Of a DNA stretch of 64,000 nucleotides, positions 7,745 to 42,222 are shown in pieces; the first letter of the stretch is position 1, and every line of letters begins with the position of its first letter. This DNA is from Dehalococcoidia bacterium. Its GTDB lineage: Bacteria > Chloroflexota > Dehalococcoidia > UBA2979. The notes beneath the pieces were generated by a model that saw only the letters and a program-made list of their open reading frames with translations, had not been told where the DNA came from and did not search any database. The stretch lies in NCBI GenBank assembly GCA_965261685.1, contig CBDHDI010000012.1, forward strand, positions 2,426-66,425, given 5' to 3'. The position numbers and the translations under genes are program-made.

Positions 7745-7922
7745 GCCCCCTCGCGAGGGCGCATCCTCACGGTCGTCATCGCGGCGCGGTGTAGTCGTCG
7801 GCGTGTTCCCTCGCGGGCGGCGGGCGACCGGGTTCCGCCATCGCCACCCCCGTCGTCCTCGAGGATTCGAAGCGGCCTCTAGCCTAGCGCAGCCGCACCC
7901 CCGGCGAAGCGGGACGGGTGTG

Positions 7923-11256: not shown

Positions 11257-11324
11257 TCGGGGCGCGCGCGATCCAGGGCAGCGTGGCTGCCACGGAGATA
11301 CGAGTCTCGTGCTACACTGACGCC

Positions 11325-11564: not shown

Positions 11565-11992
11565 GCGTCTTCGTCGACACCAACGTCCTCGTGTACGCGC
11601 GGGACAGCGACCACCCCGCCAAACAGGAGCGCGCTCAGGCGTGGCTGGAACACCTCTGGTCGTCGGCTGAAGGGCGGATCAGCGCGCAGGTGCTGAACGA
11701 GTACTACGTCACTGTCACCCGTCGGCTCGAAGCCCGGCTGTCGCCGGTGGAGGCCCGCGCCGATATCGAGGACCTCCTGGCCTGGAGCCCGCAGCCGATT
11801 GACACCGATCTGGTTCTGCGCGCCCTTGAGATCGGGGAGGCTGCGCAGCTTTCCCACTGGGACGCGCTGATCGTCGCCGCCGCCCAGCGCAGTGGCTGTA
11901 CGCATCTGCTGACGGAAGACCTCAATGACGGGCAGCAGATCGACACCGTCGCCGTGATCAACCCGTTCGCGCACGAGCCGCCTATTCGCTGA
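11561..11992 (+). CDS. vapC: PIN-domain ribonuclease toxin VapC
   Basis: MSVFVDTNVLVYARD...QVLNEYY...HWDALIVAAAQRSGCTHLLTEDLNDG. Confidence 0.9.
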   Translation: MSVFVDTNVLVYARDSDHPAKQERAQAWLEHLWSSAEGRISAQVLNEYYVTVTRRLEARLSPVEARADIEDLLAWSPQPIDTDLVLRALEIGEAAQLSHWDALIVAAAQRSGCTHLLTEDLNDGQQIDTVAVINPFAHEPPIR

Positions 11993-12132
11993 GTTGCACC
12001 AGCGAACGCATCGCCCGCACCGTCCCGTTCGCGTCGGCTGCCGCGTGTTCGACGCACCCTGCCCGCCCCGCCTCACCCCGACCCTCTAGAATCGTCCGGC
12101 TGCCGAACGAGCGCCCGAATCGACCGGGAAGG

Positions 12133-13095: not shown

Positions 13096-13122
13096 CGGCG
13101 CGGCGCGGGAGGCGTTCCGGAC

Positions 13123-14406: not shown

Positions 14407-14490
14407 GCCGCTCGCTCCGCGCCCCGAGGCGGCGGGCCGCGGCTTGCGACCGCCTGCGGTATAAGGTGAGCGCCGCCGGAAGGATGGGCA

Positions 14491-15726
14491 ATGGCAGAGC
14501 CGCACGACAGCGCGCCCGTGGACACCGCGCCCCTCGACGACGTGCGCGTCCTCGATCTCTCCGAGGGCATCGCCGGGCCGTTCTGCACCAAGCTGCTGGC
14601 CGCCCTCGGCGCCGACGTGATCAGCGTCGAGGCGCCGGGGCGCGGCGACCGCGCGCGCTCGTACGCGCCGTTCCCGGACGACGACCCGCACCCGGAGCTG
14701 AGCGGGCTCTTCCTCTACCTCAACACCGGCAAGCGCAGCGTCACGCTCGACCTCGCGCAGGCTTCCGGGCGCGCGCTCGGCAGGCGGCTAGCAGGCTGGG
14801 CCGACATCGTGATCGAGGACTTCGCGCCCGGCCGCCTCGACGCCTGGGGTCTCGGCTACGAGGCGCTCGATGCGGCGCACGAGGCGGCGGGGGATGTGGG
14901 GCGGCCGGGAGTGATCGTGGTCTCGGTCGCGGACTTCGGGCAGAGCGGCCCGTACCGCGACTGGCAGGCGACGGACCTGACGGCGCTCGCCCTCGGCGGC
15001 TCGCTCTACATCGCCGGCGACGACGACCGCGAGCCGCTCAAGATCGGGGGGCGGCCGGCGCAGTTCTTCGCCGGGCTCTCCGCCTTCAGCAGCGCGCTGG
15101 TCGCGCTCCACTACCGCGACGCGAGCGGCGGCGAGGGCCAGCACGTCGATGTCTCGATGCACGAGGGCATCGCGACCGCACAGGAGTACCCGGGCGCGGC
15201 GTGGGCCTACAAGCGCGAGATTCGACCTCGGGGCAACAGCCACGCGCCGATGTTCGAGGTGGACGACGGCTGGATCGGGCTGATGTTCCCGCAGGCCCGC
15301 TGGTCACGCTTCTGCGAGCTGATCGGACGGCCGGATATCGAGCACGATCCGCGCTTCAGCGGCGCGCGGCAGCGCCGCGACCACATGGACGAGCTGCGCG
15401 CGGTCGTCGCCGAGTGGACCGCGGGCAAGCGCAAGGCGGACCTCTACCACGCGGTGCAGGCGGTGCAGGCGCCGGCCGGCTACGTTTGCACCGCGCCCGA
15501 CCTGATCGAGTCGCCGCAGTTCATCGAGCGCGAGTTCTTCAGCGAGCTCGATCACCCGGCGGCGGGGCCGCTGCTCTACCCCGGCCTGCCGCTGCGCTTC
15601 GGCACGGTGCGCCCGCCGTTGCGCCGCGCGCCGCTGCTCGGCGAACACAACGCCGAGGTCTACGGCGAGCTGCTGGGCTGCAGCGCCGCCGACCTCGCGC
15701 GGATGCGCGGCGCGGGGGTGATCTAG
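14491..15726 (+). CDS. Family III CoA-transferase (CaiB/BaiF)
   Basis: VRVLDLSEGIAGPFCTKLLAALGADVISVEAPGRGD...NTGKRSVTLDL...WQATDLTALALGGSLY. Confidence 0.9.
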   Translation: MAEPHDSAPVDTAPLDDVRVLDLSEGIAGPFCTKLLAALGADVISVEAPGRGDRARSYAPFPDDDPHPELSGLFLYLNTGKRSVTLDLAQASGRALGRRLAGWADIVIEDFAPGRLDAWGLGYEALDAAHEAAGDVGRPGVIVVSVADFGQSGPYRDWQATDLTALALGGSLYIAGDDDREPLKIGGRPAQFFAGLSAFSSALVALHYRDASGGEGQHVDVSMHEGIATAQEYPGAAWAYKREIRPRGNSHAPMFEVDDGWIGLMFPQARWSRFCELIGRPDIEHDPRFSGARQRRDHMDELRAVVAEWTAGKRKADLYHAVQAVQAPAGYVCTAPDLIESPQFIEREFFSELDHPAAGPLLYPGLPLRFGTVRPPLRRAPLLGEHNAEVYGELLGCSAADLARMRGAGVI

Positions 15727-17012
15727 TGACGGCCGAGCCGCGCGGACCGGGCGCCCTCGCGGGGCTGCGCATCGTCGACCTCTCGCAGGTCTGGGCGGGG
15801 CCGCTGGCGCTGAAGCTGCTCGGCGACATGGGCGCGGACGTGATCAAGGTCGAGTCCGGCCGCCGCACGGACACCGCGCGAGGCGACCCCAACCCGCAGG
15901 GCAGCACCGCGATCTACCCCGACGACGAGCCCGGCCCCGAGCCGTGGAACCGCGCGGGGCTGTTCAACGACCGCAACCGCAGCAAGCGCGGCATCTGCCT
16001 GGACCTCACCATGCCCGAGGGCATCGCGACGCTGAAGCGCGTCGTCGCCGCCTCGGACGTGGTCGCCGAGAGCTACCGCTTCGGCGTGCTCGAACGCCTC
16101 GGCGCGGGCTACGAGGCGTTGCGCGCCGTGAAGCCGGACATCGTCTACGTCTCCTTCTCCAGCCAGGGCGCGACCGGACCGGAGCGCGAGTACGGCTCCT
16201 ACGGCGCGATTCTCGAGCAGACCGCGGGCATCGCCTCGATCACCGGCTACCGCGACGGCCCGCCGACCAGCTCCGGCACCTTCTTCCCCGACCCGGTCGT
16301 CGCGATGCTCGGTGTCGGCGTGATCCTCGCCGCCGTGCGCGGCCGCGACCGCACGGGCGAGGGCTCGTTCGTCGATCTCTCGCAGCGCGAGGTCACGACC
16401 TCGATCGTGCCGGAGATGCTGATGGACTACGCGATGAACAGCCGCACGCGCGGGCCGCAGGGCAACCGCCACGAGGTCCATGCCCCGCAGGGCGTCTACC
16501 CGGCGGCGGGCGAGGACGCCTGGATCGCGATCACCGTGCGCTCGGACGCCGAGTGGCGCGCCCTCGCGGAGCTGATCGGCGGCACGGAACTCGCCTCGGA
16601 CGCGCGCTTCGCGACGCTGCTGGGGCGGCGCCGCCACCACGACGAGGCGGACGCGCTGATCGCCGCCTGGACGCGCGAGCGCGAGCCGCGCGCGACGATG
16701 GAGCAGCTACAGGCGCTCGGCGTGCCTGCCGGCATGGTGCATCGTGGCGACACGCTGATCGAGGACCCGCAACTGGTGGAGCGCGGCTTCTGGGAGCCGG
16801 TGACCCACCCGGCGGCGGGCCGCATCCCGCACCTCAGCCGCCCCTTCAAGCTGAGCCGCACCCCCGGCTGGACCCCGCGCCACGCCCCGATGCTCGGCGA
16901 GCACACCACCGAGGTGCTGCGCGACGTCGCCGGCCTCTCCGAGTCCGAGATCGCCGACCTCGACGCCCTCGGCGTCACGCGCAACGTGCCGGATGCTGCT
17001 GCGGGGGGTTGA
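15726..17012 (+). CDS. Family III CoA-transferase (CaiB/BaiF)
   Basis: GTG 15726 overlaps the preceding TAG by 1 nt. VTAEPRGPGALAGLRIVDLSQVWAGPLALKLLGDMGADVIKVES is the second half of ORF 14466..17012. Confidence 0.85.
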   Translation: MTAEPRGPGALAGLRIVDLSQVWAGPLALKLLGDMGADVIKVESGRRTDTARGDPNPQGSTAIYPDDEPGPEPWNRAGLFNDRNRSKRGICLDLTMPEGIATLKRVVAASDVVAESYRFGVLERLGAGYEALRAVKPDIVYVSFSSQGATGPEREYGSYGAILEQTAGIASITGYRDGPPTSSGTFFPDPVVAMLGVGVILAAVRGRDRTGEGSFVDLSQREVTTSIVPEMLMDYAMNSRTRGPQGNRHEVHAPQGVYPAAGEDAWIAITVRSDAEWRALAELIGGTELASDARFATLLGRRRHHDEADALIAAWTREREPRATMEQLQALGVPAGMVHRGDTLIEDPQLVERGFWEPVTHPAAGRIPHLSRPFKLSRTPGWTPRHAPMLGEHTTEVLRDVAGLSESEIADLDALGVTRNVPDAAAGG

Positions 17013-17062
17013 GGGGGAGGGGGAGGCGTCGTCGGAGGTAGCGGGTGCCGATGATCTGAGTC

Positions 17063-18328
17063 CTAGAGAGCAATTCCTTCGCAGTCCACAGGGACAGTCG
17101 CCGGACCCCGGATACTCACTGCTCCGGCGGGAAGCAGGAGGTACAGTTCGTCATCCTCGAGGCTTGTCTCACCGTCTAGGCAGTGCTCGTTGTCGACGAA
17201 CAAGACGTAGCACACGCGACCACGCTTCCGACTCGACTGATACATGATTCCATCGATCGGCATCATCCCTTCCTCAGCGCTGAACACGCGGCGGAAGTAC
17301 TCGGTAACGATTTGTGTTGGCACATACTCAATGTGCTCCTGGCCATCCTTCCGAATCGGTTCAGCAATGGCTCTGCCGAACTCTTCGAGGAGGCGGACCT
17401 TCTCCCGCAACGGCCTGACTGATTCATCAAAGAGGCTCGGGAGAGGGTTCTGGCCAGTGAGGTCGATGAGGCGAAGAGGCCGCGATGGCTTGAACGCGGC
17501 AACGCTTGCTTTCGCGGTCCCGGAGGGATCCCGCGATTCCTCGTAGACTTCGGCAATAGCCGTGCTCTCATTATCCGACGCATAGAACATCGGGATTCCA
17601 GCCGGACTCATCCGGTTCGCTGCAGTTGCGTGCTCGAGTGGTGCTGTCCCAATCTCCTGAGCGCTCCCAAACGTGTTGCCGTGAAGGGAGAGGCGGGCTC
17701 GGTAGAACGTCTGGTCCGTTCCAATCTCCCGAATGAGTCCCAGCGTGCGAACCGCCTCGCCCACATATGCGGGCGTCTCACTGACGCTCATCCCATTGCC
17801 AGACACGGGTCCACCGCCAGTCTCGTCGGCAGGTTCAGTTGGGAAGTAGTAGCGGCTCTGGTGTTTCACATGGGCTACGAAGTGTCGCCACCCGGAGATG
17901 AACTCCTGACTCTCTGACAATCCGTAGGGATCGCGGGGGCAAAACATGCGACCATCAAATGAATCGGCGAATTCGAAGTAGAGCTTCTCGCTATTGAATA
18001 ATGCTAGGTCTTCAACCAATTCGTAGCTGTCAGACCAGATCCCAACTAGCGTCTTGTCTTCACTGTCGTAGGGGTACCAGTTGTTGGCTTCGTCGTACTC
18101 GGCCGACAACCCCTCGTTCATGAAGGCGAACAGGTCGTTAACGGGGACGGCCAGCGGTACCTCTCGTGAGGAGCGGTCACAGTAGGTGCAGGCGTGCTCG
18201 CTGGCGCTACATTGAATCCATTCCTTCAAAAAGGGCTCCTCGACACACTCATCGCAAGCGAAAGCGTCGTCTACGAATGTCCAGCCCTGCAGTTCCTGTC
18301 GGGTCAAGCGATCCTTGGCGAAACCCAC
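17063..18328 (-). CDS. RES-domain protein with Cys-rich N-terminal module (HEPN/RES-NTD1-like), low-GC islet
   Basis: GTG 18328 preceded by gggaggctagct; 421 aa. RES signature: FYRAR...NRMSPAGIPMFYASDNESTAIAEV...YVPTQIV...DGIMYQSSR. The N-terminus carries CDEC-x11-C-x6-CTYC. The upstream part of track ORF 17063..18985 is a shadow of the CoA-transferase. Confidence 0.8.
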   Translation of the reverse strand: MGFAKDRLTRQELQGWTFVDDAFACDECVEEPFLKEWIQCSASEHACTYCDRSSREVPLAVPVNDLFAFMNEGLSAEYDEANNWYPYDSEDKTLVGIWSDSYELVEDLALFNSEKLYFEFADSFDGRMFCPRDPYGLSESQEFISGWRHFVAHVKHQSRYYFPTEPADETGGGPVSGNGMSVSETPAYVGEAVRTLGLIREIGTDQTFYRARLSLHGNTFGSAQEIGTAPLEHATAANRMSPAGIPMFYASDNESTAIAEVYEESRDPSGTAKASVAAFKPSRPLRLIDLTGQNPLPSLFDESVRPLREKVRLLEEFGRAIAEPIRKDGQEHIEYVPTQIVTEYFRRVFSAEEGMMPIDGIMYQSSRKRGRVCYVLFVDNEHCLDGETSLEDDELYLLLPAGAVSIRGPATVPVDCEGIAL

Positions 18329-18360
18329 AGCTAGCCTCCCGGCAGCATCAGCCAGGCCGC

Positions 18361-19725
18361 CTACGTAGCGTCGTCGAGGTAGCGGTCGCCGATAATGTCG
18401 GTGTCGAGGAGTTGGGCGTAGCGCTCGTCGCTGACGCCGAGGAGGTCCTGCAGCACCTCGCGGTTGTGCTGGCCGAGCAGCGGGGCGTGGCTGCGGATGC
18501 GCAGCGGGCGCTCGCGGAAGCGCGCGACCGGGGCCGGGTAGCTGTGCGTGCCCGCCGCCGGGTGGTCGACTTCCTGCCAGAAGCCGCGCTCCCGCAGGTG
18601 CTCGTTCTCGCGCAGCTCCTCCTGACGCAGCAGCTCGGCGGCAGGCACGCCCGCGGCCTGCAGCCGCTCCATCAGCTTGCGCGCTACGTGCTGCGAGGTC
18701 CACGCCTCGATCAGCGGCTCGAGCTCGTCCTGATGCTCGTAGCGCACCTCGAGGGTGGCGAAGCGCGGGTCGCCGGCCAGTTCCGGCTCGCCCATCTCGG
18801 CGGCGAGCGCGGCGAACTGCTCGTCGCTGGCGACGGCGATCGCGATCCAGCGGCGGCGGCTCGACTCGGTCTGCTCGCCCGGCGCGTCCGCGCAGCGGAA
18901 TACGCCGCTCGGCGCCTTCGAGGGGTGGCGGTTGCCGAAGGTGCTCCGCACGCGCCCGTTGAACGAGTAGTCCATCAGCGCCCACGAGATGTGGTGCAGC
19001 CCGGCCTCGACGTGCGAGAGGTCGATCATCTGCCCTCGACCCGTCCGCTCGCGCGCGAACAGCGCCGCCTGGACGGCGAAGGCGACGTGGATGCCGGCGT
19101 TGGGGTCGCCGTGCGCGAGGCCGGGGGTGAAGGAGGGATCGCTGTCGCGATAGCCTCGCAGGTAGGTGTGGCCGCCGAGCGCGTCCATGGTGGGCGCGAA
19201 GCCCTTGAACCTGCGGTAGGGGCCGGTCGTCCCGAAGCCGGGGAAGCGAGCCTGGATGATGCGCGGATTGAGCTCGGCGAGCCGCGGGTAGTCCAGCCCG
19301 AACTTCTCGACGACGCCCACTGCGTTGTTCTCGATGTAGACGTCGGAGACGCGCACCAGATCGCGCAGCAGCCCGATGCCGTCGGGCCGCTCGATGTCCA
19401 GCGTGATGCTCTTGTGGTTGCGCTTGGAGTAGTTGAAGTGGGCGTTGCGGTTCCAGAAGCCCTCGCTCGGGTCGCGGTCCCTGTAGAGCGCGCCGAAGGG
19501 GCCCTGCAGGTAGAGCTCGGGCAGGTTGCGATAGTTCGAGCGCGTCGGGTTGACGTGCTGGATCGACTCGATCTCGATCACCTCGGCTCCGAGGTCGGCG
19601 AGGATCAGGCTGGCCGCCGGCCCCGCCCAGACGATCGCCTGCGAGAGCACGCGCACGCCCTCGAGGGGCAGCCTCGCCCCGGAGCGGGGTGCGGGCGCGG
19701 CGCCGGATGCTCCGTCAGACGACAT
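18361..19725 (-). CDS. Family III CoA-transferase (CaiB/BaiF)
   Basis: 454 aa with LEGVRVLSQAIVWAGPAASLILADLGAEVIEIES. Confidence 0.85.
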   Translation of the reverse strand: MSSDGASGAAPAPRSGARLPLEGVRVLSQAIVWAGPAASLILADLGAEVIEIESIQHVNPTRSNYRNLPELYLQGPFGALYRDRDPSEGFWNRNAHFNYSKRNHKSITLDIERPDGIGLLRDLVRVSDVYIENNAVGVVEKFGLDYPRLAELNPRIIQARFPGFGTTGPYRRFKGFAPTMDALGGHTYLRGYRDSDPSFTPGLAHGDPNAGIHVAFAVQAALFARERTGRGQMIDLSHVEAGLHHISWALMDYSFNGRVRSTFGNRHPSKAPSGVFRCADAPGEQTESSRRRWIAIAVASDEQFAALAAEMGEPELAGDPRFATLEVRYEHQDELEPLIEAWTSQHVARKLMERLQAAGVPAAELLRQEELRENEHLRERGFWQEVDHPAAGTHSYPAPVARFRERPLRIRSHAPLLGQHNREVLQDLLGVSDERYAQLLDTDIIGDRYLDDAT

Positions 19726-20938
19726 TGCGCTGCCTCAGGATCGAGACGTCCTCGGGGCTGTAGCCGAGCTGCTCTGTGAGCACCTGCGTGGTGTGCTCGC
19801 CGAGCAGCGGCGCGCGGCGGATCGAGGCGGGCGTCTCGCTCATCTTGAACTGCGCGCCGGGGTACTCGCGCGGGCCGGTCTCCGGGTGGTCGAGCTCGAC
19901 GAAGTAGCCGCGCGCGCGCAGCTGCCGGTCGGCAAAGAGATCGGCGGTGGTGTTGAGCGCGGCGACGGGCACGCCCTGCGCCTGCGCGGCGTCCATCACC
20001 TCGATCTTGGTGCGCTCCAGCAGCCAGGGGTAGATCAGCGCGTCGATCTGCGGTCCGAACGCCGGGTCGAGCAGGTTGTCCGAGTAGCTGCTGTCGTCGA
20101 TCAGATCCTCGCGGCCGACCATGCGGCAGAAGCGGTCCCACCAGTAGGGGTAGCAGAGGAAGTTGACGTAGCCGTCCTTGCAGGGCAGCTGGCCGCCGTA
20201 GACGCCGATGGGGAAGGCGCTGGCGCGCAGGTTGCAGTTCTCGGTGACGAACAGCTCGCCGCCGTAGGAGTAGGCCATCAGGTTCTGCGAGGCGCGGTCG
20301 AGCGAGCTGGCGAGGATCTCCTGGATCGAGAGGTCGACGCGCTCGCCCTCGCCGAAGCGCACGCTCGAGGTGATCGCGCCGAGGCTGTAGGAGGCGGACA
20401 TCGCTCCGGCGAGGAAGAGCGGGGCGTAGAGCCAGGGGCGGGTCGGCTCGCGGCCGGGGTAGGCGGTGATGGCGAGCCCGCCGCCCATCGCGTAGAGCAG
20501 CATGTCGTCCGCCTCGAAGTCGCGGTACGGCCCGTGCTGCCCGAAGTTCGAGATCGAGACGAGCGCGGCGGCGGGGTTCAGCTCGGCGAGCTGCTCCTCG
20601 CTCAGGCCGAGGCGGGCGAGCGTGCCGGGCCGGAAGTTCTCGACGACGGCGTCGCTGTCGGCGGCGAGGCGGCGCAGGATCCGCTGTCCGCTCTCGGTCT
20701 TGAGGTTGAGCGTGAGGCTGCGCTTGCCGGTGTTGAGGTCGAGGAAAAGGCCGCTGCGCTCGGGGTGCGGCTCGTCGTCGGGGAAGGGGCCGGCGCGCCG
20801 CGCCGGGTCGCCGCCCTCGGGGCGCTCGATCTTGAGCACGTCGGCGCCGTAGTCGCTGAGCAGCTTGGTGCAGTAGGGGCCGGCGACCCCCTGCGTGAGG
20901 TCGAGGATCCGCAGTCCCTCGAGGGCGCCCTCGCTCAT
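19715..20938 (-). CDS. Family III CoA-transferase (CaiB/BaiF)
   Basis: Internal ATG 20938 preceded by gggaggagcagcg. The sequence reads MSEGALEGLRILDLTQGVAGPYCTKLLSDYGADVLKIERPEGGDP. Confidence 0.85.
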   Translation of the reverse strand: MSEGALEGLRILDLTQGVAGPYCTKLLSDYGADVLKIERPEGGDPARRAGPFPDDEPHPERSGLFLDLNTGKRSLTLNLKTESGQRILRRLAADSDAVVENFRPGTLARLGLSEEQLAELNPAAALVSISNFGQHGPYRDFEADDMLLYAMGGGLAITAYPGREPTRPWLYAPLFLAGAMSASYSLGAITSSVRFGEGERVDLSIQEILASSLDRASQNLMAYSYGGELFVTENCNLRASAFPIGVYGGQLPCKDGYVNFLCYPYWWDRFCRMVGREDLIDDSSYSDNLLDPAFGPQIDALIYPWLLERTKIEVMDAAQAQGVPVAALNTTADLFADRQLRARGYFVELDHPETGPREYPGAQFKMSETPASIRRAPLLGEHTTQVLTEQLGYSPEDVSILRQRNVV

Positions 20939-26779: not shown

Positions 26780-26831
26780 CGGCCGCCGGTGGGGCAGATG
26801 ATGCGGCTCGCCTAACCCTCGGGGACAACCC

Positions 26832-27464
26832 TCACCTGGTCGGCGATGAAGTCGCTGGTCCCCCAGCCAGTATCCGGATGGCATCGAGGGCCCGACACAA
26901 GTGTTCGCTGAATCCCGGGCCGGCCTGACCCTCTGGCAAGTACCTCCATAACTCGAACATCTTTGCATGGATGCGGAAAACCTCCCTGACATGCGATAGC
27001 TCGGGCATGGAAAGGTCGGCTCCGATCGATCTCACGGATCGCGAAGAGGAGACGAGACGCATGTAGACTCGGTTCAACTGACCCTGCGTATCTTCTGAGA
27101 GCTTGTCGAACAGCTCCGAAAGGTCGTGAGTATTGGCAGCCAATTCGTTTGGGTTCTCGATCTCATGGAGCAACTTCAGGCCTGTTTCTACGGCCAGTGG
27201 TAGCAGGATACTGGCGGCCAGCAGATTGCCTGTAGATTTGTACCTTGCGTCACTCCTGTCTGGCCTGACGAGTTCTTGAGGGAATTCTGACGTGCGATGC
27301 ATTAGCCCATCGATAACTTCGCTCAAGTCCTCCATTACCAGCATGGCTGTCTCATCGTTCAGCCGAGTCTGCTTCTTCGTGCTACGCAGAGGTTGCCCGA
27401 CCCCTTGCTCGAATTTCACTATCGTGATCTCGCTGCGGCTGTCCCGGCCCGCTTCTCTAGGCAT
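26832..27464 (-). CDS. Hypothetical protein with HEPN-like features, low-GC
   Basis: 210 aa. AVETGLKLLHEIENPNELAANTHDLSELFDKL resembles classical HEPN helices. A possible Rx5H is present (REVFRIH). 27091..27190 is 49% G+C by hand count. Confidence 0.5.
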   Translation of the reverse strand: MPREAGRDSRSEITIVKFEQGVGQPLRSTKKQTRLNDETAMLVMEDLSEVIDGLMHRTSEFPQELVRPDRSDARYKSTGNLLAASILLPLAVETGLKLLHEIENPNELAANTHDLSELFDKLSEDTQGQLNRVYMRLVSSSRSVRSIGADLSMPELSHVREVFRIHAKMFELWRYLPEGQAGPGFSEHLCRALDAIRILAGGPATSSPTR

Positions 27465-27597
27465 GAGCTAGGGTGCCCCCTCTCCTGGGTGCCCCCGTGG
27501 GTGCCACCCTCGAATACAACGGATGGTGCCGACACACTCTCTGGGGCCGGCTGTCCCATCGTTCTCTGCTGCTACGCTCGTTCCACGTCGCCTCTCG

Positions 27598-27930
27598 CTA
27601 CGCGCGCTTATCCTCTCCCACCTCCGAGAAGTTGGTGATGGCGACCTCGCCCTCGGGGAACTCGGCGACGATCTTCAGCCGGCCGCCGACCGCCTCAATG
27701 TAGGAGCGGAGGCTGGAGACGTAGATGTCGGCGCGCTGTTCCAGCTTGGCCACGGCGGGCTGGGTCACCTGCAGCGTCTCCGCCAGGTCCTGCTGGGTCA
27801 GCGCCCGTGCCCGGCGCAACTCGTTCAGCGGCATCTCGGCGAGCAACTCGCGCTTCATCGCGTCGATGCGCCGACGGCGTTCAGGCGTGATGTCCTTCGT
27901 CAGTTCCCGGAATGGGTGGCGTCCGCTCAT
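27598..27930 (-). CDS. higA: XRE-family HTH antitoxin (HigA-like)
   Basis: ATG 27930. The sequence reads MSGRHPFRELTKDITPERRRRIDAMKRELLAEMPLNELRRARALTQQDLAETLQVTQPAVAKLEQRAD. It overlaps the higB stop by 4 nt. Confidence 0.85.
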   Translation of the reverse strand: MSGRHPFRELTKDITPERRRRIDAMKRELLAEMPLNELRRARALTQQDLAETLQVTQPAVAKLEQRADIYVSSLRSYIEAVGGRLKIVAEFPEGEVAITNFSEVGEDKRA

Positions 27931-28289
27931 TCGATCACTCCCTCCCGTCGCAGCTCGCGCAGGTGCTCGTCGTAGAGGTCGTCGGCCCGTGGCACGTACT
28001 CCTCGTAGAAGCGGTCGTTGCCGGTCTTGTCGCCGCCGATGAGGAGGATGGAGGTCCGCCTCGGGTCGAAGGCGTACAGGACCCGCAGGGGCTGGCCGGC
28101 ACTCTGCGCTCGCAACTCGCGCATCACGCCATGGCGCGAGCCCCGGATGTCGGAGGAGTAGGGGTACGGCAGGTTCGGTCCGTATTCCATCAGCAGCTCG
28201 ACCCTCGCGGTCACGGCATCCTGGTCGCGCTCCGCGATCTCCTGCCACCAGTCACCGAACTGGTCTGTGTACTCCACCTCCCACGGCAT
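27927..28289 (-). CDS. higB: RelE/ParE-superfamily toxin (HigB / Gp49-like)
   Basis: 120 aa with MPWEVEYTDQFGDWWQEI...MRELRAQSAGQPLRVLYAFDPRRTSILLIGGDKTGNDRFY. Confidence 0.85.
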   Translation of the reverse strand: MPWEVEYTDQFGDWWQEIAERDQDAVTARVELLMEYGPNLPYPYSSDIRGSRHGVMRELRAQSAGQPLRVLYAFDPRRTSILLIGGDKTGNDRFYEEYVPRADDLYDEHLRELRREGVIE

Positions 28290-28291
28290 AG

Positions 28292-28330
28292 AGTCAGTAT
28301 ATGACTATTAGGGAATGTTTGGGAATGCTG
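28292..28330 (-). promoter_or_regulatory. Candidate higBA operator/promoter
   Basis: Inverted repeat agtca-gtata-tgact at 28292..28306, directly upstream of the higB ATG. Tandem gggaatg motifs at 28311 and 28321. Confidence 0.4.
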
Positions 28331-28396
28331 CTCTCCAAGCGTGAGCTGCAATAGCCGAGGAGCCCAGCACCAGTATGTCGCTAGGTCGAAACCGAA

Positions 28397-28462
28397 GGCA
28401 CTACGAGTGCGTGCGCAGGAAGGCGCGGATCTCCTCGAGGGTGGCGGCAGCCGGGTTGGCCG
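28397..28462. repeat. Relic copy of the 3' end of the alpha/beta hydrolase gene 29807..30667
   Basis: ggcactacgagtgc..gcgcaggaaggcgcggatctcctcgag.gtggc matches 29803..29868. It encodes ...TLEEIRAFLRTHS-stop, against ...TLEEIRAFLREHS-stop in the intact gene. Confidence 0.8.
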
Positions 28463-30681: not shown

Positions 30682-31908
<1,227 letters not shown>

Positions 31909-32250
31909 CGTGCCTCCAGCGGTTGCGTCGGGTAGCGAGGGCGTTCCGCGGCATGGGGCGCGGCGCGCCGGTATCTTAGCGCCTCGTGGCCTCCCGACGC
32001 GGGCGGCCCGTCCGGGAGGTGCGCGCCGAGCAGCGCTCGATCGGCGACTACACCGCGCGCATCAAGGTCAGCGAGCGCCCGGCCCCACGTCGGCCAGCTC
32101 ATGGACAACACCCTGATCCGCGAGGAGCCGGGCTTCGCCCCCTGCTATACCATCGAAACAGACCTCGCCGACTACATCGAGCGCATCCGCAGCGCTCTGG
32201 ATGTGACGGGGCGCTGACAGACCGGCACCTGCAGCAAGAGGGAGGCCAGT

Positions 32251-33906
32251 ATGCCACAGCTCAACTGCTACAAGCTCAAGTCTGAGCCAGTTGACGGCGG
32301 AACGGATAACTTCGATCGATGGATCGATCTCAAGGCGACCGACGTGACATATGGGCCGATTACACGCCGGGGATTCCGCGCGAACTTGTACGTGCGGAGT
32401 GGTGCCCCCATGGTTCCGGCATGGACCAAATTCGTCGGCGCACCGTTCGACAATCCGGACTGGGTGCCCGGCAGGTACACCTCTGCAGCCCTTGTGGTAG
32501 AGACAGAAGATGGGGACTGCTTCGCGTTTGCCTTTGGTCCTGGCGGCCGGTTTATGATTCGCCCTGACGGGTACGACCGAGCGTTCGGACTTCGTACGGC
32601 GCTCAACCTGCTTTCGGAAGGGGACGGAGGACCCGTCGCGGAAGCGCCAGAGCTTCGTGCGGTCAATCTCAGCAGAATGGGCACCAACACACGGCGATCA
32701 CAGCAGCAGCTTTCAAAGAGCTCATCCATCAGTGAGTTCGAACTCGACACGCTGCAGGACATCTTTGTTGCTGCGACCGGACGTCCACAAGAGGTTAGCA
32801 AATGGGGAACAACGGTGACGGGGCGAGAGTCGCTCCACATAAGTCTGGACTTGTCTTTCGACGAGCTAGGCGATCTTTGTAAGGATCTGAGTGCCGCAAG
32901 CGTACGGGAAGACTATCAAGCGCACTTTCGATGGGTTGACTACTTCCAGCCTGTGTCCGACCAGACGACCCAGCAAGAATTGGTGGACTCAGTCCTCCGA
33001 GCATTCAAGGACCAAGACTGGGAGAGTCTCGATCTTGCACCGCCTGATCTCTTGGACTGGAGTCAGGTCGCGGGGTTCCACTATCACTTTGACCGAAAGC
33101 CGAGAGGTGGTTCTGTTGTCCTTCATCCGGAACTGAGAATTCAGGACTACTTTCGTGGTGTCCAAAGGGAAATCGACAGGGTTGATTGGGCGTATCTTAA
33201 GACACATGACATCACAATCCGCGATGGTGATCATCGGAAGTTGCATGGGTGGCCGGTTTGGCGTTGGCTCAATGGCACGTTCACCCTAGAGGAAGGCACG
33301 TTCGTACTTGACTCGGGAAACTTCTTCTCTGTTGACCAAGCATATCTTGAAAGCCTGAACGCAGAGATCGATGAGATCCCGATTACGAGCTTACTGTTCC
33401 CTCATGCACTGAGTGGAGAGCAAGAGGGAACCTACACCGAGCGGATCGCTGCGGATCTCGCACCGTGTCTTGTCCTCGATGGAGACCTGGTGCGTAGGGG
33501 TGCGGGCGAGTCGCCGGTCGAGCTGTGCGACTTGATGACCGCTGATCGACGTCTCATTCATATCAAGAGACACTTCGCTTCACGTGGCATTAGTCATCTG
33601 TTGGCGCAGGCGACTGGTTCAGCTGAGATGCTACAAATGGACCGTGAGTTCCGTGAGCGAGCGGCGACATTGATTTCGAAGCACGATTCCGAAGCCCTGT
33701 TCGAGGGGTGGTTCTCTGATGCACCGTTCGAAACTCGGGCGTTCGAAGTCGTCCTAGCCATAATCGGGAGGTGGAATGGGCGTTCCGCATCCAAGGCGTT
33801 ACCGTTCCTGAGCAAGGTGAATCTCCGGAACGCAGTCCGTCGCTTTCAGAGTAGCAACTACGGATATTCGCTTGCGCCGATCGGGGTCGGTGAACTTGGC
33901 GGGTAG
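32251..33906 (+). CDS. DUF6119 / TIGR04141-like sporadically distributed protein (function unknown), low-GC islet
   Basis: 551 aa. N-terminus is MPQLNCYKLKSEPVDGGTDNFDRWI. The C-terminal core is ESPVELCDLMTADRRLIHIKRHFASRGISHLLAQATGSAEML. Family assignment is from memory of the family pattern, not a search. 32251..32350 is 53% G+C against 72% for 33912..34011 (hand counts). Confidence 0.7.
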   Translation: MPQLNCYKLKSEPVDGGTDNFDRWIDLKATDVTYGPITRRGFRANLYVRSGAPMVPAWTKFVGAPFDNPDWVPGRYTSAALVVETEDGDCFAFAFGPGGRFMIRPDGYDRAFGLRTALNLLSEGDGGPVAEAPELRAVNLSRMGTNTRRSQQQLSKSSSISEFELDTLQDIFVAATGRPQEVSKWGTTVTGRESLHISLDLSFDELGDLCKDLSAASVREDYQAHFRWVDYFQPVSDQTTQQELVDSVLRAFKDQDWESLDLAPPDLLDWSQVAGFHYHFDRKPRGGSVVLHPELRIQDYFRGVQREIDRVDWAYLKTHDITIRDGDHRKLHGWPVWRWLNGTFTLEEGTFVLDSGNFFSVDQAYLESLNAEIDEIPITSLLFPHALSGEQEGTYTERIAADLAPCLVLDGDLVRRGAGESPVELCDLMTADRRLIHIKRHFASRGISHLLAQATGSAEMLQMDREFRERAATLISKHDSEALFEGWFSDAPFETRAFEVVLAIIGRWNGRSASKALPFLSKVNLRNAVRRFQSSNYGYSLAPIGVGELGG

Positions 33907-33911
33907 GAAGT

Positions 33912-36407
33912 CTAGTACGCCACTCCGGCGTCGGCGAGGGCGGCGTGCTCCTCGGGGCTGAGGCCCAGGATCTCGCGGTAGACGTAGTCGTTGTGCTGGC
34001 CGAGCGCCGGGGCGGGGTGCATCTCCGGGCGGGCGCCGTTGACCAGCCAGGGCATGGAGAGCACCTCGAGCGTGCCGAGGCGGGCGTGGTCGACGGTCGT
34101 CCACATGCCGCGCTGGCGGACGTGGGCGTCCTCGTAGAGGTCGCGCACGTTCATGCTCGGCGACGCGGGCACGCCCAGCGACTGCAGCTCGGCGACCAGC
34201 TCGTCGCGATTGCGGCCGCGCGCCCAGTCGGCGATCGCCGCGTCGATCGAGGGCTCCTGCGCCTTGCGCGCCTGGCGGTCCCAGGCGGGGTCGAGCCGCC
34301 AGTCGCCGATGTGTTCGGCGAGACGGCGCCACTGCTCGTCGCGCTCGACGGCGAGCACGACCCAGCCCGGGCGGTCGCTGTCCTCGCACTCGTACGAGTT
34401 GTGCGGGGCGAGCACCGGGTGGCGGTTGCCCATCGGCTCGTCGACGGCGCCGCGCAGCTGCCATTCGATCAACTGGTCGCCGACCAGCGTGGTCCCCACC
34501 TCGGAGGCGGCGAAGTCGATGAACACTGCACTGTCCGAATGGTCGCGCGCCATCAGCCCGACGATCGCGGCGAGGGCGACCGAGGTGCCGACGCGCTGGT
34601 CGAGCGGGCCGCGGTACTCGCTGGGGGTGCCGACGTCGTAGCCGCTCAGCGCGGACATGCCGGAGGTCGCGCCGAAGACGGCGGCGTAGCCGGGCATGTG
34701 GCCGTCCGGCCCGGTCTCGCCGTTGGCCGAAAGCGAGACCATTACGATGCGCGGATTGACCTCGATCAGCCGGTCGAAGCCGAGGCCGAGCCGCTTCACG
34801 GCGCCCGTCCGGAAGCTCTCGATGATCACGTCGGCGCCGGCGACCAGCTCGCGCACGATCTCGCGCCCGCGCTCGTGCGCGAGGTCCACCTGGACGCTCT
34901 GCTTGCCCATGTTGACCTCGTTGAAGCGGTAGCCGGTGTCGACCCAGTCGCCGTACTTCAACTCGTCGAGCATCACGGTCTTGAGGCGGCGCGCCTTGCG
35001 GAACGGGTCGGTGCGATTGAGGCTCTCGACCTTCACGACCTCGGCGCCCAGCGAGGCGAGGATCATGTTTCCGTAGGGCCCCGCCTGGTACCAGGTGAGG
35101 TCGACGATGCGCTTGCCCGCGAGCCAGCCGATCGGCCGCGCCGGCGGCACCGCCAGCTGCGGCTTTGGGGCGCCGGAACGGATCGCGGGCGCGCGATCGC
35201 CGTCGAGGGCGGCGAGCGTCGCCTCGGTGTCCGCGCCGAGCCGCGGCGGCGCGGCCCCGGCCGGTCCCGGCCGCCAGGCGCGGTCGCCGCTCGCGCCGCC
35301 CCCGGCCGCGCCGTGCGCCTCGCGCACGATGTAGGGGTGGGCCGGCACGTCCTGCGGCTCGCCGTCCGGGTAGCTGACGGTGTCGAAGAAGTCGCGGAAG
35401 CGCATCTGCTCGCAGTGGAAGATGTCTTCCATCGTGCGAACCGGCCCGCCGGGGACGCCGTGCTTGCGCAGGGCCTGGTAGATCTCGTGCTTGCTGCGCT
35501 CCTTGAGCCAGACGGCGAAGAGGTCGTTGAGCTCGCCGGTGTGCTTGATGCGGTCCTCGGCGGTGGAGCCGAGGGTGTGCGCCCACTCCGGGCTGTCGAC
35601 GGCCAGCACGAGGCGTTCCCACATGTGCTGCTCGGAGGGGTAGATCTCCACCCAGCCGTCGAGGCACTCGACGAGGCCGAGCACCGGGATCTGGCGCGTG
35701 GCGCGCGTATCGATGAAGCCGTCGTTGGGCCACTTCACGATGTCCTGGCGGCTCAGCGCCATCGCCGCTTCCTGCCAGCTCAGCTCGACGACTGCCGGCT
35801 CGCGATCACCGGCGAGCCAGCCGAGCATCGTGAGGCCGGCCGCCGTGCCCGCGTCCAGCTCGGCGACGCGGCTGGGGACGCGGACCGGCTCGCGGTCCGG
35901 GTAACGCAGCCAGCTGAGGCCGCCGGGGAAGGCGTACGCCTCGCCGCCGGTGTGGTGGGCGGTGAGGTGCGTGGCCTCCCAGCCGGCGTGATCGCCGAAG
36001 CGCCCGAAGGGCGTGAGCGAGACCGCCAGGCGGCAGCGCCCGCTGCCCGGCAGCGCATCGAAGTCCAGCCCGATCTCGTCCCAATGGCTCGCCTCGTGCC
36101 CGTCGAGCACGATCTCCGCGCTCGCCAGCAGCCGTGCGAGGTCGTCCCGCCCCTCGGGCGTGGTGTCGTCGATGACGACGCTGCGCTTGCCGGCGTTGGC
36201 GTAGGCGAAGAGGGCGGAGCAGTCGGCGCCGGGGGCGGTGAAGCCCTCGAAGCGCGTGCGGTCGCCCTCGGGCGGCTCGATCTTGGTGACCGTGACGCCG
36301 AGGTCGGCGAGCAGCCGTCCGGCGAAGCCGATCGCGGCGCTCTGGCCGTACTCGACGGCGCTCACGCCCTCGAGCAGAGCGGGCGCGGGGACGAGCTGCT
36401 CGCTCAC
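33912..36407 (-). CDS. Tandem two-domain family III CoA-transferase (831 aa)
   Basis: Domain 1: GVSAVEYGQSAAIGFAGRLLADLGVTVTKIEPPEGD...NAGKRSVVID. Domain 2: LAGKRIVDLTWYQAGPYGNMILASLGAEVVKVESLNRTDP...NMGKQSVQVDL. Confidence 0.85.
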   Translation of the reverse strand: MSEQLVPAPALLEGVSAVEYGQSAAIGFAGRLLADLGVTVTKIEPPEGDRTRFEGFTAPGADCSALFAYANAGKRSVVIDDTTPEGRDDLARLLASAEIVLDGHEASHWDEIGLDFDALPGSGRCRLAVSLTPFGRFGDHAGWEATHLTAHHTGGEAYAFPGGLSWLRYPDREPVRVPSRVAELDAGTAAGLTMLGWLAGDREPAVVELSWQEAAMALSRQDIVKWPNDGFIDTRATRQIPVLGLVECLDGWVEIYPSEQHMWERLVLAVDSPEWAHTLGSTAEDRIKHTGELNDLFAVWLKERSKHEIYQALRKHGVPGGPVRTMEDIFHCEQMRFRDFFDTVSYPDGEPQDVPAHPYIVREAHGAAGGGASGDRAWRPGPAGAAPPRLGADTEATLAALDGDRAPAIRSGAPKPQLAVPPARPIGWLAGKRIVDLTWYQAGPYGNMILASLGAEVVKVESLNRTDPFRKARRLKTVMLDELKYGDWVDTGYRFNEVNMGKQSVQVDLAHERGREIVRELVAGADVIIESFRTGAVKRLGLGFDRLIEVNPRIVMVSLSANGETGPDGHMPGYAAVFGATSGMSALSGYDVGTPSEYRGPLDQRVGTSVALAAIVGLMARDHSDSAVFIDFAASEVGTTLVGDQLIEWQLRGAVDEPMGNRHPVLAPHNSYECEDSDRPGWVVLAVERDEQWRRLAEHIGDWRLDPAWDRQARKAQEPSIDAAIADWARGRNRDELVAELQSLGVPASPSMNVRDLYEDAHVRQRGMWTTVDHARLGTLEVLSMPWLVNGARPEMHPAPALGQHNDYVYREILGLSPEEHAALADAGVAY

Positions 36408-37833: not shown

Positions 37834-38256
37834 TCATGCGCTTGCCCACGGATCGATCACGTCGATGCCGCAGCCGTGGAAGCCGCCGCTGTCCCTTGTG
37901 GCGACGGATGCCCCGAGCGAGCGGGCGATCGCGGCGATCTGGCAGTCCAGCTGGCTGATGGGATGCCCGGCGGCTCGGCGGGCGGCCGCTATCTCGGCGT
38001 AGGCGCGTGCGGCGGCGCGGTTGAACGGAAGAATGCGCCCCGCGAAATCCTCCCGCAGCACTCCCTCGATCCCGGCGAGCAGGCTGTTGCGGCGTCGCCC
38101 TTCGGGCAGGATCTCGACGCCGTAGCGCAGCTCGGCCTCGCTGATCGTCGAGAGGAACAGGTCGGGGGCTACCTGGCGAGCAATCCAGTCGGTCACGCTG
38201 GTGTTCGGGGCAGGCAGCATCAGCTCCGACACGACGTTGGTATCGAGGACGATCAT
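37834..38256 (-). CDS. vapC: PIN-domain toxin VapC
   Basis: ATG 38256. The sequence reads MIVLDTNVVSELM...STISEAELRYG...QLDCQIAAIARSLGASVATRD. Confidence 0.9.
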   Translation of the reverse strand: MIVLDTNVVSELMLPAPNTSVTDWIARQVAPDLFLSTISEAELRYGVEILPEGRRRNSLLAGIEGVLREDFAGRILPFNRAAARAYAEIAAARRAAGHPISQLDCQIAAIARSLGASVATRDSGGFHGCGIDVIDPWASA

Positions 38257-38266
38257 CGCCCGTGCC

Positions 38267-38512
38267 TCAGTCGAATCGGGGCGGCTCGCGCATCGGCTCA
38301 CGGGGTGGCAGTTCCAGTTCGACGCCGCCGAGGGGTGCGAACCGGGCGCGAATGGCGCTCGCCAGATCCTTGCCTGTCGGAGAGTCCTCGTCCAGCGCCG
38401 CGCGCAGAATGTCCCGCGCCTCCTGCTCCATGGAGCGGCCGTTCTCAGCTGCGCGGATGCGCAGCCGCCGCTTCAGTCCATCGTCCAGGTTGCGCACCGT
38501 GATGCTGGCCAT
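38267..38512 (-). CDS. vapB: VapB-type antitoxin (FitA/Arc-like RHH)
   Basis: MASITVRNLDDGLKRRLRIRAAENGRSMEQEARDILRAAL. Confidence 0.9.
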   Translation of the reverse strand: MASITVRNLDDGLKRRLRIRAAENGRSMEQEARDILRAALDEDSPTGKDLASAIRARFAPLGGVELELPPREPMREPPRFD

Positions 38513-40643: not shown

Positions 40644-40688
40644 CGGCCACGCCTCCCCGGCAGTCTCGCCTCGCTCGCTCGGCGGTGG

Positions 40689-41840
40689 CTAAGTTGTGAA
40701 CTGGTTCATCAGCCCGATGTTGGCGTGCAGCGTGCCTTCCTCAATGCGTACGAGGTTCTGCTCCCGCAAATAGTTGATGTCGCGCGTCAGGGTCTTGTTC
40801 GTGGTGCTGGCATAGAGCGAGGCAGCGGGGTGCTCCCGAGCGCGAAGCCTGGTCAGGGGGATCGGGCCGCCGATCGTCCAGCGCACGAGCTCGAGCCGCC
40901 GTTCGCCGACCCTGGAGCTTAGTCCTACATCCTCGAGTAACGTCTGCCGAGCGTAGTCAGTGAACGCGAGCCCCCGCAGGAATCCCAGCGTCTCGGCGTG
41001 TACCTGCTCCAGTTCCTCGCGCAGACCGCGGAGCGCGAATGTCACGAACTCAGTGAGGTCCACGAACTCCGATCCCTCCTTGCCGTGCACGAACCGCGTT
41101 CGGTCGAGCAACTCCATATATTCCGGGCGGTGCTGGTAGTAGAAGTTGGCGAGCGAGTAGAAGCCGAACGAGTTGATGCCACTGCGGTACAGGACGAAGC
41201 TCTCCACAGCCCGCGATGTGCGGCCGTTGCCGTCGCCGAAGGGGTGAACGCTGATCAGGTAGAAGTGCGCCGCGACCGCGCGAACGCACTCCGGCCAGCT
41301 ATCGCGATCGCGGGTCTCAGGGAACCACTCGAAGAAGCGATCCATGAGGTCGCACACCTCTTCCGGAGGCGGGGCCACGTAGTCGCCCGCGACGACCGGG
41401 TGTTCGCGGTAGACGCCCGGAGCGTTGCGCCCGTAGTCGATGTCGGCCGTCGTGAGTCGGTGAATCTCACGCACATGCTGTTCGGTGAGATCCTGGTCCG
41501 GCGCGTCGTTCACGGCGCGCCGGATGTAGTCCATGGCCCGCGCTGCGTTGCGGGCCTCGGCCTCCTCGCGGGCGCGGGCCGTGCCGAGCACGGGCCCGTC
41601 GTCCGGGTCGGCGGCCAGAATCTCCTCCACCTCGCCTTCAGTGAGGTTGGCGCCTTCGATGCCCGTGGTGCCCCGCACCGCGCGCATGATGTTCAGCCGG
41701 TCGACTCTACCGCGGAGCGCCGGAGGCATGGGAATGCTGCCAACCAGCCCGGCGAGCGCCTCGACGCGAGCCACCAGTTGAAGCAACTCGCGGTCTCGCA
41801 GATCGACCGAGGCGTGGAAACGGATGTCCCAGCGAGGCAT
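40689..41840 (-). CDS. Fic-family protein (canonical AMPylation motif, N-terminal inhibitory motif, C-terminal wHTH-like region)
   Basis: ATG 41840 after ggagcgaac. Contains HPFGDGNGRTSR (the HxFx[D/E]GNGRxxR motif) and TTGIEG matching (S/T)xxxE(G/N). 41101..41200 is 57% G+C. Confidence 0.85.
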   Translation of the reverse strand: MPRWDIRFHASVDLRDRELLQLVARVEALAGLVGSIPMPPALRGRVDRLNIMRAVRGTTGIEGANLTEGEVEEILAADPDDGPVLGTARAREEAEARNAARAMDYIRRAVNDAPDQDLTEQHVREIHRLTTADIDYGRNAPGVYREHPVVAGDYVAPPPEEVCDLMDRFFEWFPETRDRDSWPECVRAVAAHFYLISVHPFGDGNGRTSRAVESFVLYRSGINSFGFYSLANFYYQHRPEYMELLDRTRFVHGKEGSEFVDLTEFVTFALRGLREELEQVHAETLGFLRGLAFTDYARQTLLEDVGLSSRVGERRLELVRWTIGGPIPLTRLRAREHPAASLYASTTNKTLTRDINYLREQNLVRIEEGTLHANIGLMNQFTT

Positions 41841-41952
41841 GTTCGCTCCACTCTGACCGGCGTTTGCCCCGCCGGTGTCCTGCATCCTGTCCAGTCAATT
41901 GTCCACCAAATTATCAACGGGTACAAGTGAAATATAGCTATACGCGCTTTCC

Positions 41953-41993
41953 GATGTCCACCATGATGTCCCGTACGATGTCCCAAGATGTCC
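41953..41993. repeat. Four direct GATGTCC heptamers with 12/12/10-nt phasing
   Basis: cGATGTCCaccatGATGTCCcgtacGATGTCCcaaGATGTCCtg. Copies start at 41953, 41965, 41977 and 41987, in the AT-richer spacer upstream of fic. Confidence 0.8.
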
Positions 41994-42222
41994 TGCGACG
42001 GATCGTTCGGTGACCCGTCTCTCGCCTTCACGCTGCGCTAGCCGTTAGGGGCGTCACCGGGCGGCGTACCGACCAGCCCCGAGCCGACCGGGCGCTTCTC
42101 CGGGCTGCGGTTTCCTGAGGACTGGATGGGGGCCTGCCCGGCTGGCAGGTGTCCTGGCCAGTCGCTGGCGTGGGCGCGGGAAGCCCTCGATCGATGGCGT
42201 CAGGCGCCCCGGCCAGCGTCCG

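Follow-up and report, generated by a model that had tools for sequence, protein, structure and literature searches.

A horizontally acquired DUF6119 gene in a variable cargo slot of a Dehalococcoidia genome: member of a candidate single-polypeptide defence family

A foreign gene in an exchangeable slot

The gene described in this work resides at positions 32251..33906, forward strand, of a stretch of 64,000 nucleotides (nt) from contig CBDHDI010000012.1 of a Dehalococcoidia bacterium, hereafter called the window. It encodes a full-length member of the DUF6119/TIGR04141 protein family, is foreign to its host, was acquired horizontally, and is precisely inserted at a site where sister strains carry other genes. 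The interpretation that we favour, and to which we assign an even chance, is that this solitary gene was recently acquired into a strain-variable slot, and that the family consists of single-polypeptide proteins providing defence against phages or plasmids through a C-terminal nuclease-like hydrolase. A role in defence is plausible on the basis of genomic context; the nuclease activity and an abortive infection mode are put forward as hypotheses.

The open reading frame (ORF) starts with ATG, is intact, and encodes 551 amino acids (aa). A first-pass annotation of the window, made from the letters alone, had assigned the product to DUF6119/TIGR04141, and searches with hidden Markov models confirmed the assignment. 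The Pfam model DUF6119 (PF19614) matches residues 39-543 over model positions 37-522 of 524, with E 1e-108 and 364.7 bits against a cut-off of 27; the NCBIfam model TIGR04141 matches over positions 2-516 of 516, with E 1e-106 and 357.5 bits against a cut-off of 35. The protein shares length class and invariant residues with the entries known as “sporadically distributed protein”, yet is divergent, being at most 39-41% identical to any sequence in a collection of 5.8 billion proteins. Conservation was measured on 210 members, 25-41% identical to the window protein. Residues W58, G96, G99, G113 and G191, invariant in the family (at least 99% across this set), are all kept, and departures from near-invariant, non-catalytic positions are found at N396T, F451L, G454A and F520L.

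The base composition of the gene is manifestly different from that of its surroundings. G+C content is 56.0% in the ORF, with dips to 51.7% in 300-nt windows, versus 70.6% and 72.6% in the flanks; a hand count of 53% in 100 nt, reported by the first-pass annotation, was close to the mark. When 1,694-nt windows, the size of the insert, were moved over the 64 kb, mean G+C was 69.6 +/- 3.0%, and the insert (0.562) was the lowest of all. The G+C at third codon positions (GC3) is 0.61 in the ORF, versus 0.96-0.98 in both neighbouring genes. These encode an acyl-CoA dehydrogenase (30682..31908, reverse strand; Pfam Acyl-CoA_dh_N, _M and _1; syntenic in contigs L085 and L087, described below), and a two-domain family III CoA-transferase (33912..36407, reverse strand; Pfam CoA_transf_3, 4e-139).

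The limits of the foreign DNA were set by comparing the slot with contigs from metagenome assemblies, which carry orthologues of the CoA-transferase at 99% (L084), 97% (L086), 89% (L085) and 77% (L087) identity. Breakpoints were derived from blastn comparisons to L084 and L085, and from junction alignments at the base level. The insert measures 1,694 nt (32218..33911, forward strand), and includes a 33-nt leader, the ORF and a 5-nt trailer. It takes the place of a spacer of about 31 nt, separating two convergent stop codons: homology to the relatives halts at the stop codon of the CoA-transferase gene, which is the right boundary of the insert, and restarts at the stop codon of an epimerase gene. 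The last base of the DUF6119 TAG is 33906, the convergent CoA-transferase ORF has its end at 33912, and the two stops are separated by the 5 nt already noticed in the first-pass annotation. The description of the locus as a precise foreign insertion is hence upheld by the breaks of homology at both stop codons, and by the different cargo found in sister strains.

The 342 nt upstream of the DUF6119 gene are not plain intergenic DNA. They contain the remnant of a NAD-dependent epimerase pseudogene, corresponding to the frameshifted C-terminal 74 codons or so (32020..32217, forward strand, ending with TGA at 32215-32217). The remnant is 78% identical to L085 8517-8736 in blastn; in blastx, similarity is 76% identity over 55 aa (E 1e-22), with a second high-scoring segment in a different frame. 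In L085 the slot hosts an intact 320-aa NAD-dependent epimerase (Pfam Epimerase/3Beta_HSD), which is convergent with the CoA-transferase and has a host-like G+C content (0.708). In L087 the slot hosts a 74-aa epimerase tail alone, independently truncated. In L084 and L086, whose flanks are about 96% identical to the window in DNA, it accommodates genes encoding a MazE antitoxin, a PemK toxin and a perhaps STAND-like AAA_16 protein of 741-882 aa (L084 8497-12100; L086 8497-11930; equivalent to window 32033-33913), and this cargo is GC-poor (0.614 in L084). The window and L084 share an identical internal deletion junction in the epimerase gene, GGCGCGCA joined to CCTCCCGG, and the decay of the epimerase thus preceded the acquisition of differing cargo. 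The slot is an exchangeable cargo hotspot within a decaying gene, filled by different genes in sister strains.

No tRNA gene is found in the 64-kb window, insertion sequence (IS) marks and integrase are missing at the slot, and direct or inverted repeats flanking the insert do not exceed those expected by chance in GC-rich sequence; the gene is stand-alone, as the first-pass annotation had it. Two candidate features were discarded. A 23-nt direct repeat (32041/32165), considered as a mark of insertion, is a chance repetition within the remnant of the epimerase, and a small upstream ORF (32101-32217), considered as an antitoxin-like partner, is the C-terminus of the epimerase according to blastx.

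A Shine-Dalgarno-like GGGAGG lies in the leader (32218..32250, forward strand), about 6 nt upstream of the ATG; the leader is too short to host a promoter within the insert. Further upstream, the region at 31909..32019 (forward strand), which diverges from the acyl-CoA dehydrogenase gene, is shared with the relatives, being homologous in L084 and L085. This is likely the former promoter region of the epimerase, and the likely source of transcription of the DUF6119 gene.

Distribution of the family and its genomic neighbourhoods

Clustered at 50% identity, the DUF6119 proteins retrieved by an exhaustive profile search form 4,729 clusters with E <= 0.001, of which 2,322 reach E <= 1e-30. Among the 150 best matches listed, nearly all proteins are full-length, in the range of 530-560 aa, the length class of the window protein. 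A second, word-indexed homologue search starting from the alignment yielded no broader set. At least 577 loci were found by scanning one genome per species, and members occur in Actinomycetota, Chloroflexota, Planctomycetota, Pseudomonadota, Bacillota, Bacteroidota, Spirochaetia, Saccharibacteria, and in one archaeon, a Methanosaeta. DUF6119 genes reside on 25 of 72,556 plasmids, in one of 50,697 phage records and on two IMG/VR contigs; phage and prophage copies lie at the ends of the elements, beside integrases. The family thus occurs sporadically, resides for the most part on chromosomes or plasmids, and moves horizontally. One paper describes it as “commonly associated to mobilomes”.

To draw a picture of the context, ORFs were called around the 80 best of the at least 577 genome loci, and neighbours within 6 kb were clustered. 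No conserved partner gene emerged, and the largest cluster of neighbours is represented in just 8 of the 80 loci. Since the family has neither a conserved partner nor an antitoxin-like neighbour, the protein has to regulate itself, in line with a sensor and effector residing in a single chain. Recurrent clusters of neighbours do exist, and all of them correspond to restriction-modification (R-M) genes. R-M modules lie within 6 kb of the DUF6119 gene at about 16 of the 80 loci, a lower bound, because many of the contigs surveyed are short; type I systems account for about 10 of 80, type III systems accompanied by SNF2 helicases for 4-6 of 80. An R-M module is expected beside a random gene in about 1% of cases, well below the figure observed. 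Co-location with defence genes is thus recurrent, and spans different phyla.

In type I loci, HsdM-like proteins were recognized at 8, HsdR-like at 7 and HsdS-like at 6 loci. The order hsdM-hsdS-DUF6119-hsdR is found in L020, L025 (the archaeon), L058 and L062, and the identity of the neighbours was established by PADLOC and Pfam (REase_I, E = 0; Specificity_I, 1.7e-91; T1RH-like_C, 3.9e-140). The same order, with genes overlapping by 4 nt, is found in the conjugative plasmids pKUB257 of Mameliella and pNS6001 of Actibacterium. Both plasmid operons continue with a gene for a SprT/YgjP-like protease, typical of hsd operons, and in pKUB257, whose DUF6119 protein is WP_172431611, AbiE and PIN pairs lie on the sides of the hsd operon. 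The hsdS-DUF6119-hsdR arrangement is accordingly present in at least six type I loci, four in genomes and two in plasmids. In a metagenomic relative (L093), the DUF6119 gene follows a hsdS gene.

Type III loci are organized differently. In L022, L023, L035 and L064 the DUF6119 gene lies between a SNF2/DrmD-like helicase gene and the type III mod gene, 0-16 nt upstream of the latter, and res is downstream. Matches in L064 and L023 scored 2.6e-201 (SNF2/DrmD-like), 1.1e-225 (Mod) and 1.5e-219 (Res), and the same clusters are found in L022 and L035. The L064 locus (4610-20427, Neisseria sp. 83E34) is peculiar, as the array SNF2-DUF6119-type III Mod-PDC-S02-type III Res, in which PDC-S02 is a PD-DExK-like candidate, splits a type I-C CRISPR-Cas locus, with cas3 on one side and cas8c/cas7c on the other, and one defence system is nested in another.

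Looking at the 126 nearest neighbours, the commonest families are ResIII, HsdR, HsdS, SNF2, integrase, N6_N4 methyltransferase, Eco57I, Mrr and BrxL; transposases are found as well. On plasmids, one DUF6119 copy resides beside a gene encoding a 2,146-aa NACHT protein, one beside genes for a TIR protein, a deaminase and an ATPase. One copy is located behind a large serine recombinase gene. The record of a plasmid match from Vibrio carries no annotation. In plasmid pAMI8 of Paracoccus aminophilus (L083 2913-9512), a gene encoding a 446-aa hypothetical protein precedes the DUF6119 gene and overlaps it by 4 nt, genes for an ATP-binding protein and a S8 peptidase lie upstream, and genes for GIY-YIG and TrlF-like ATPase proteins are near. 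This may represent a different multi-gene context for DUF6119.

The survey gives a mixed answer to the question whether homologues populate variable islands or conserved housekeeping regions. R-M and other defence contexts were found for a subset of the homologues; some, including the closest one (39% identity), lie alone among housekeeping genes. The first-pass annotation had proposed the window gene as a defence effector acting by abortive infection. The defence part gains from the embedding of homologues in R-M operons; abortive infection is just one of several compatible modes of action.

The intimate association with R-M genes could alternatively mean that DUF6119 proteins are nothing but R-M accessories, that is, subunits or regulators which need an ATP-dependent R-M complex, such as a PrrC-like guardian, set free upon inhibition of HsdMS or Mod-Res, or a modulator of restriction. 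Translational coupling between hsdS and hsdR, marked by the 4-nt overlaps, and the close spacing to type III mod genes agree with such a role, as does the occupation of the very slot held by prrC in the EcoprrI locus (PMC12707154); Ronin and EcoR22I are precedents. Under this hypothesis the window copy would be an orphan, either inert or reliant on R-M functions encoded elsewhere in the genome. We regard this as unlikely. R-M clusters lie within 6 kb at just about 16 of the 80 loci, and solitary copies are many, including the closest homologue, the plasmid copies found by NACHT and TIR genes, and the prophage copies. Moreover, the window copy is intact and has kept every invariant residue despite its recent transfer, which argues for an autonomous function.

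A further hypothesis is that the gene is selfish, and spreads itself as a homing-endonuclease-like or addiction gene, without protecting the host. It draws on the compactness of the insert, which is nearly one ORF plus its ribosome-binding site, free of IS, tRNA and repeats, on the scattered occurrence in many phyla including an archaeon, on the link to mobilomes, on the integrases and recombinases adjoining several loci, and on the putative nuclease core. Other data hardly suit it. There are no near-identical copies, the best match being 39%, and thus no sign of recent self-propagation; sister strains hold unrelated cargo at the same place, meaning that the site, not the gene, is the hotspot. 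Copies on viral contigs are rare (two IMG/VR loci and one GenBank phage), and the operon-embedded arrangement with overlapping stops is stable across distant taxa. Self-propagation as the sole role of the gene is in our opinion quite improbable.

The conserved C-terminal core

The portion of the protein which plausibly includes the active site is a conserved C-terminal core (codons 392-454, 33424..33612, forward strand), defined by conservation in the 210 members as a putative catalytic or metal-binding site. The motif ESPVELCDLMTADRRLIHIKRHFASRGISHLLAQ, highlighted by the first-pass annotation, is indeed present at residues 420-453. Residues E392, E424, C426, D427, H437, K439, S448, H449 and Q453 are conserved in at least 99% of the members, D410 in 93%; none is missing from the window protein.

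The AlphaFold2 model of the full-length protein has a mean predicted local distance difference test score (pLDDT) of 76.9 and a predicted template modelling score (pTM) of 0.72; values are higher (84.8 and 0.81) for a model of the C-terminal domain (residues 318-551). The predicted order of elements is helix 392-403, strands 406-408, 428-430 and 434-440, helix 447-463, and strand 499-505. This predicted alpha-beta-beta-beta-alpha-beta succession follows the order of the core of PD-(D/E)xK nucleases, with D427 at the start of the second strand and K439 on the third, in a D-x(11)-K spacing. Weak Foldseek matches to proteins of this superfamily include the CdiA-CT toxins 4g6u and 4zqu (E 0.09-0.31) and XPF 2bhn (E 0.19), with template modelling (TM) scores not exceeding 0.35. 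The top Foldseek matches (Mglu glutaminase, Rho, esterases) have TM scores of 0.1-0.2 and were treated as noise. A reading of the H-x-K signature as the HKD motif of phospholipase D was set aside, as the spacing to the next Asp is unfit, and this Asp is moreover absent from the window protein.

The N-terminal domain (1-122) is beta-rich and the middle region helical; neither has detectable relatives, nor does the segment at residues 125-165. The latter (window 32623-32745) is modelled with very low confidence (pLDDT 34-51), yet Q153 (97%) and F163 (94%) are strongly conserved within it, and are followed by D170 (95%); it may become ordered only upon binding of a ligand or a partner. For the N-terminal and middle regions we infer a role in sensing or in nucleic acid binding.

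Weighing the evidence

Several results weigh against the notion of a nuclease-like defence protein. As for the fold, the nuclease suggested by the first-pass annotation did not materialize in the comparisons. Foldseek searches with the full-length and C-terminal models against PDB, and with the C-terminal model against BFVD, gave nothing at E <= 0.001; sequence searches of PDB, started from the single protein or from the family profile, found no meaningful match (best E 0.86-0.97); a Pfam scan of three sub-regions of the protein at E <= 10 hit DUF6119 alone, and no PDDEXK family; hhalign comparison of the C-terminal profile with the N-terminal nuclease domains of six HsdR proteins returned probabilities below 1%. 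In addition, the usual acidic residue of the (D/E)xK signature is replaced by the invariant His437. As for function, none is assigned to DUF6119/TIGR04141 in the searchable literature, which holds no experimental evidence on the family, and no family of PADLOC-DB v2.0.0, including both catalogued and candidate systems, matches the window protein at E <= 1. As for context, most of the 80 loci are devoid of a recognisable defence neighbour, the closest homologue is solitary among housekeeping genes just as the window copy is among metabolic genes, and the enrichment in defence genes is an estimate made without a formal genome-wide control. Finally, no sigma-70-like site, and no promoter, was detected between the acyl-CoA dehydrogenase gene and the start of the DUF6119 gene.

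Membership in the PD-(D/E)xK superfamily is therefore unconfirmed by significant structural or profile similarity. A divergent metal-dependent nuclease would still be the most likely chemistry for the C-terminal domain, with a chance that we place a little short of even. The E/C/D/H/K/S/H/Q set might instead form the site of a zinc or thiol hydrolase or of an enzyme that processes nucleotides or NAD, or else bind a ligand, in a protein that may still be an effector of defence or stress response. The failure to detect significant fold or profile similarity to any nuclease speaks for this alternative, the invariant Cys and the pair of invariant His are atypical of PD-(D/E)xK sites, and weak matches to CD38, a NAD glycohydrolase, were returned by Foldseek beside those to nucleases. 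On the other side stand the order of secondary structure elements and the D...xK spacing, which suit a PD-(D/E)xK core, the fact that PD-(D/E)xK nucleases are the only recognisable enzymes recurring among the weak matches, and the R-M context, which favours nucleic acids as targets. The probability of a C-terminal domain other than a nuclease is, on balance, low.

How a DUF6119 defence protein could work may be sketched as follows. The gene landed between the convergent ends of the CoA-transferase gene and of the decaying epimerase gene, and would probably be transcribed from the old epimerase promoter. Residues 1-318, spanning the N-terminal and middle regions, would be the part that senses or binds a signal. 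Metal-dependent hydrolysis would be carried out by the C-terminal domain (residues 320-551, approximately), most plausibly a nuclease of a divergent PD-(D/E)xK type, having its candidate site in E392, D427 (with E424 and C426), H437-x-K439, and S448-H449/Q453. Copies embedded in R-M operons, either hsdS-X-hsdR or type III plus SNF2, would probably provide a second layer of defence coupled to the R-M complex, in a PrrC-like manner or as a restriction activity of their own. Solitary copies, such as that in the window, would have to act autonomously.

Comparison with known systems

Effectors wired to R-M complexes have been described. The prrC gene belongs to a type Ic hsd locus, EcoprrI; its product becomes active when the R-M complex is inhibited (PMC12707154). 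In Ronin, a membrane peptide of 61 aa, RonA, is restrained by HsdMS; EcoR22I, made by a type III R-M system and a SNF2 helicase, triggers cell death; both respond to anti-restriction proteins (bioRxiv 10.1101/2023.04.06.535777).

DUF6119 shares with PrrC (and RloC) the slot between hsdS and hsdR, the translational coupling, and the concept of a latent effector tied to type I R-M systems. Sequence or domain kinship is missing, as are common features of size, DUF6119 has no ABC-ATPase head, and there is no PADLOC or Pfam cross-match; DUF6119 genes are also hosted in type III R-M operons, and are very often alone. PrrC-like embedding is seen for a subset of the homologues, not for the window copy, which has no R-M neighbour. 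The association of SNF2 with type III Mod and Res at L022, L023, L035 and L064 reproduces the architecture of EcoR22I, and common ground with EcoR22I and Ronin is the idea of an effector of cell death under the guard of R-M subunits. RonA was considered as a possible identity of DUF6119 and rejected: RonA is a 61-aa membrane peptide, DUF6119 a soluble multi-domain protein of 550 aa.

Among type IV or PD-(D/E)xK restriction enzymes hosted by R-M loci, DUF6119 may be likened to Mrr, to the GmrSD-like TgvAB and to DNases of the CdiA-CT type for its predicted alpha-beta-beta-beta-alpha-beta core, with invariant acidic residues plus a Lys. Unlike PD-(D/E)xK restriction enzymes, it features E-x-C-D...H-x-K in place of D...(D/E)xK, and no recognisable reader or NTPase domain. 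TgvAB of V. cholerae is reportedly located inside hsd loci, as are some of the DUF6119 genes.

A bolder proposal is that DUF6119 is an undescribed, widespread family of defence effectors, in which a catalytic domain devoid of recognisable structural relatives serves a PrrC-like strategy based on different enzymology. The signature of such a domain would be E...E-x-C-D...H-x-K...S-H...Q, and the family would count at least 4,700 clusters (50% identity level), from bacteria and an archaeon. We advance this tentatively, the odds being clearly on the lower side. Were it true, a large cross-phylum family of single-gene systems, missed by PADLOC, would be added to the anti-phage repertoire, and the conserved core, having no detectable structural homologue, could be a new catalytic solution. 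The coupled insertion between hsdS and hsdR, or upstream of mod, would offer a tractable model of the wiring between restriction complexes and effectors of the second line, which has been studied so far mainly with PrrC, PARIS and Ronin. The locus, in turn, records base by base the use of a convergent-stop spacer as a cargo slot, and informs on the turnover of accessory genes in high-GC uncultured bacteria.

Other insertions in the window

The immediate neighbours of the window copy are the acyl-CoA dehydrogenase and CoA-transferase genes and the epimerase remnant, and no defence gene adjoins it. The first-pass annotation had depicted a neighbourhood dense in toxin-antitoxin (TA), RES, HEPN and Fic genes. 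These genes are real; they occur one by one, spread through about 40 kb of metabolic genes, without making up a contiguous island. The locality, being made of core metabolism interrupted by isolated small insertions, does not qualify as a defence island. Between 4 and 15 kb separate the DUF6119 gene from the closest genes of toxin or defence type, which are insertions in their own right.

A Fic/DOC protein of 398 aa (40692-41885, reverse strand) is encoded in a segment of about 1.5 kb (approximately 40681-42172), which is missing from both L084 and L085; in these contigs the two flanks are almost contiguous, and the segment is another precise single-gene insertion among core genes. Similarly, a segment of about 1.6 kb (approximately 26781-28400) is missing from L085, and contains the genes for a Gp49/HigB-like toxin (27930-28289, reverse strand) and a low-GC ORF of 210 aa (26835-27464, reverse strand; GC3 0.65) with no Pfam match. 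A second dip in G+C content (0.585-0.645) coincides with the gene for a 640-aa protein (17066-18985, reverse strand) featuring HEPN_RES_NTD1 (5.6e-25) and RES (4.4e-17) domains, probably another foreign gene of the toxin or defence type. Two type II TA pairs complete the picture. The first, a FitA-like ribbon-helix-helix protein plus PIN (37837-38512, reverse strand), is common to L084 and L086, and replaced by a 58-aa ORF in L085; the second, a MazE-like protein plus PIN, is found at 55449-56137, forward strand.

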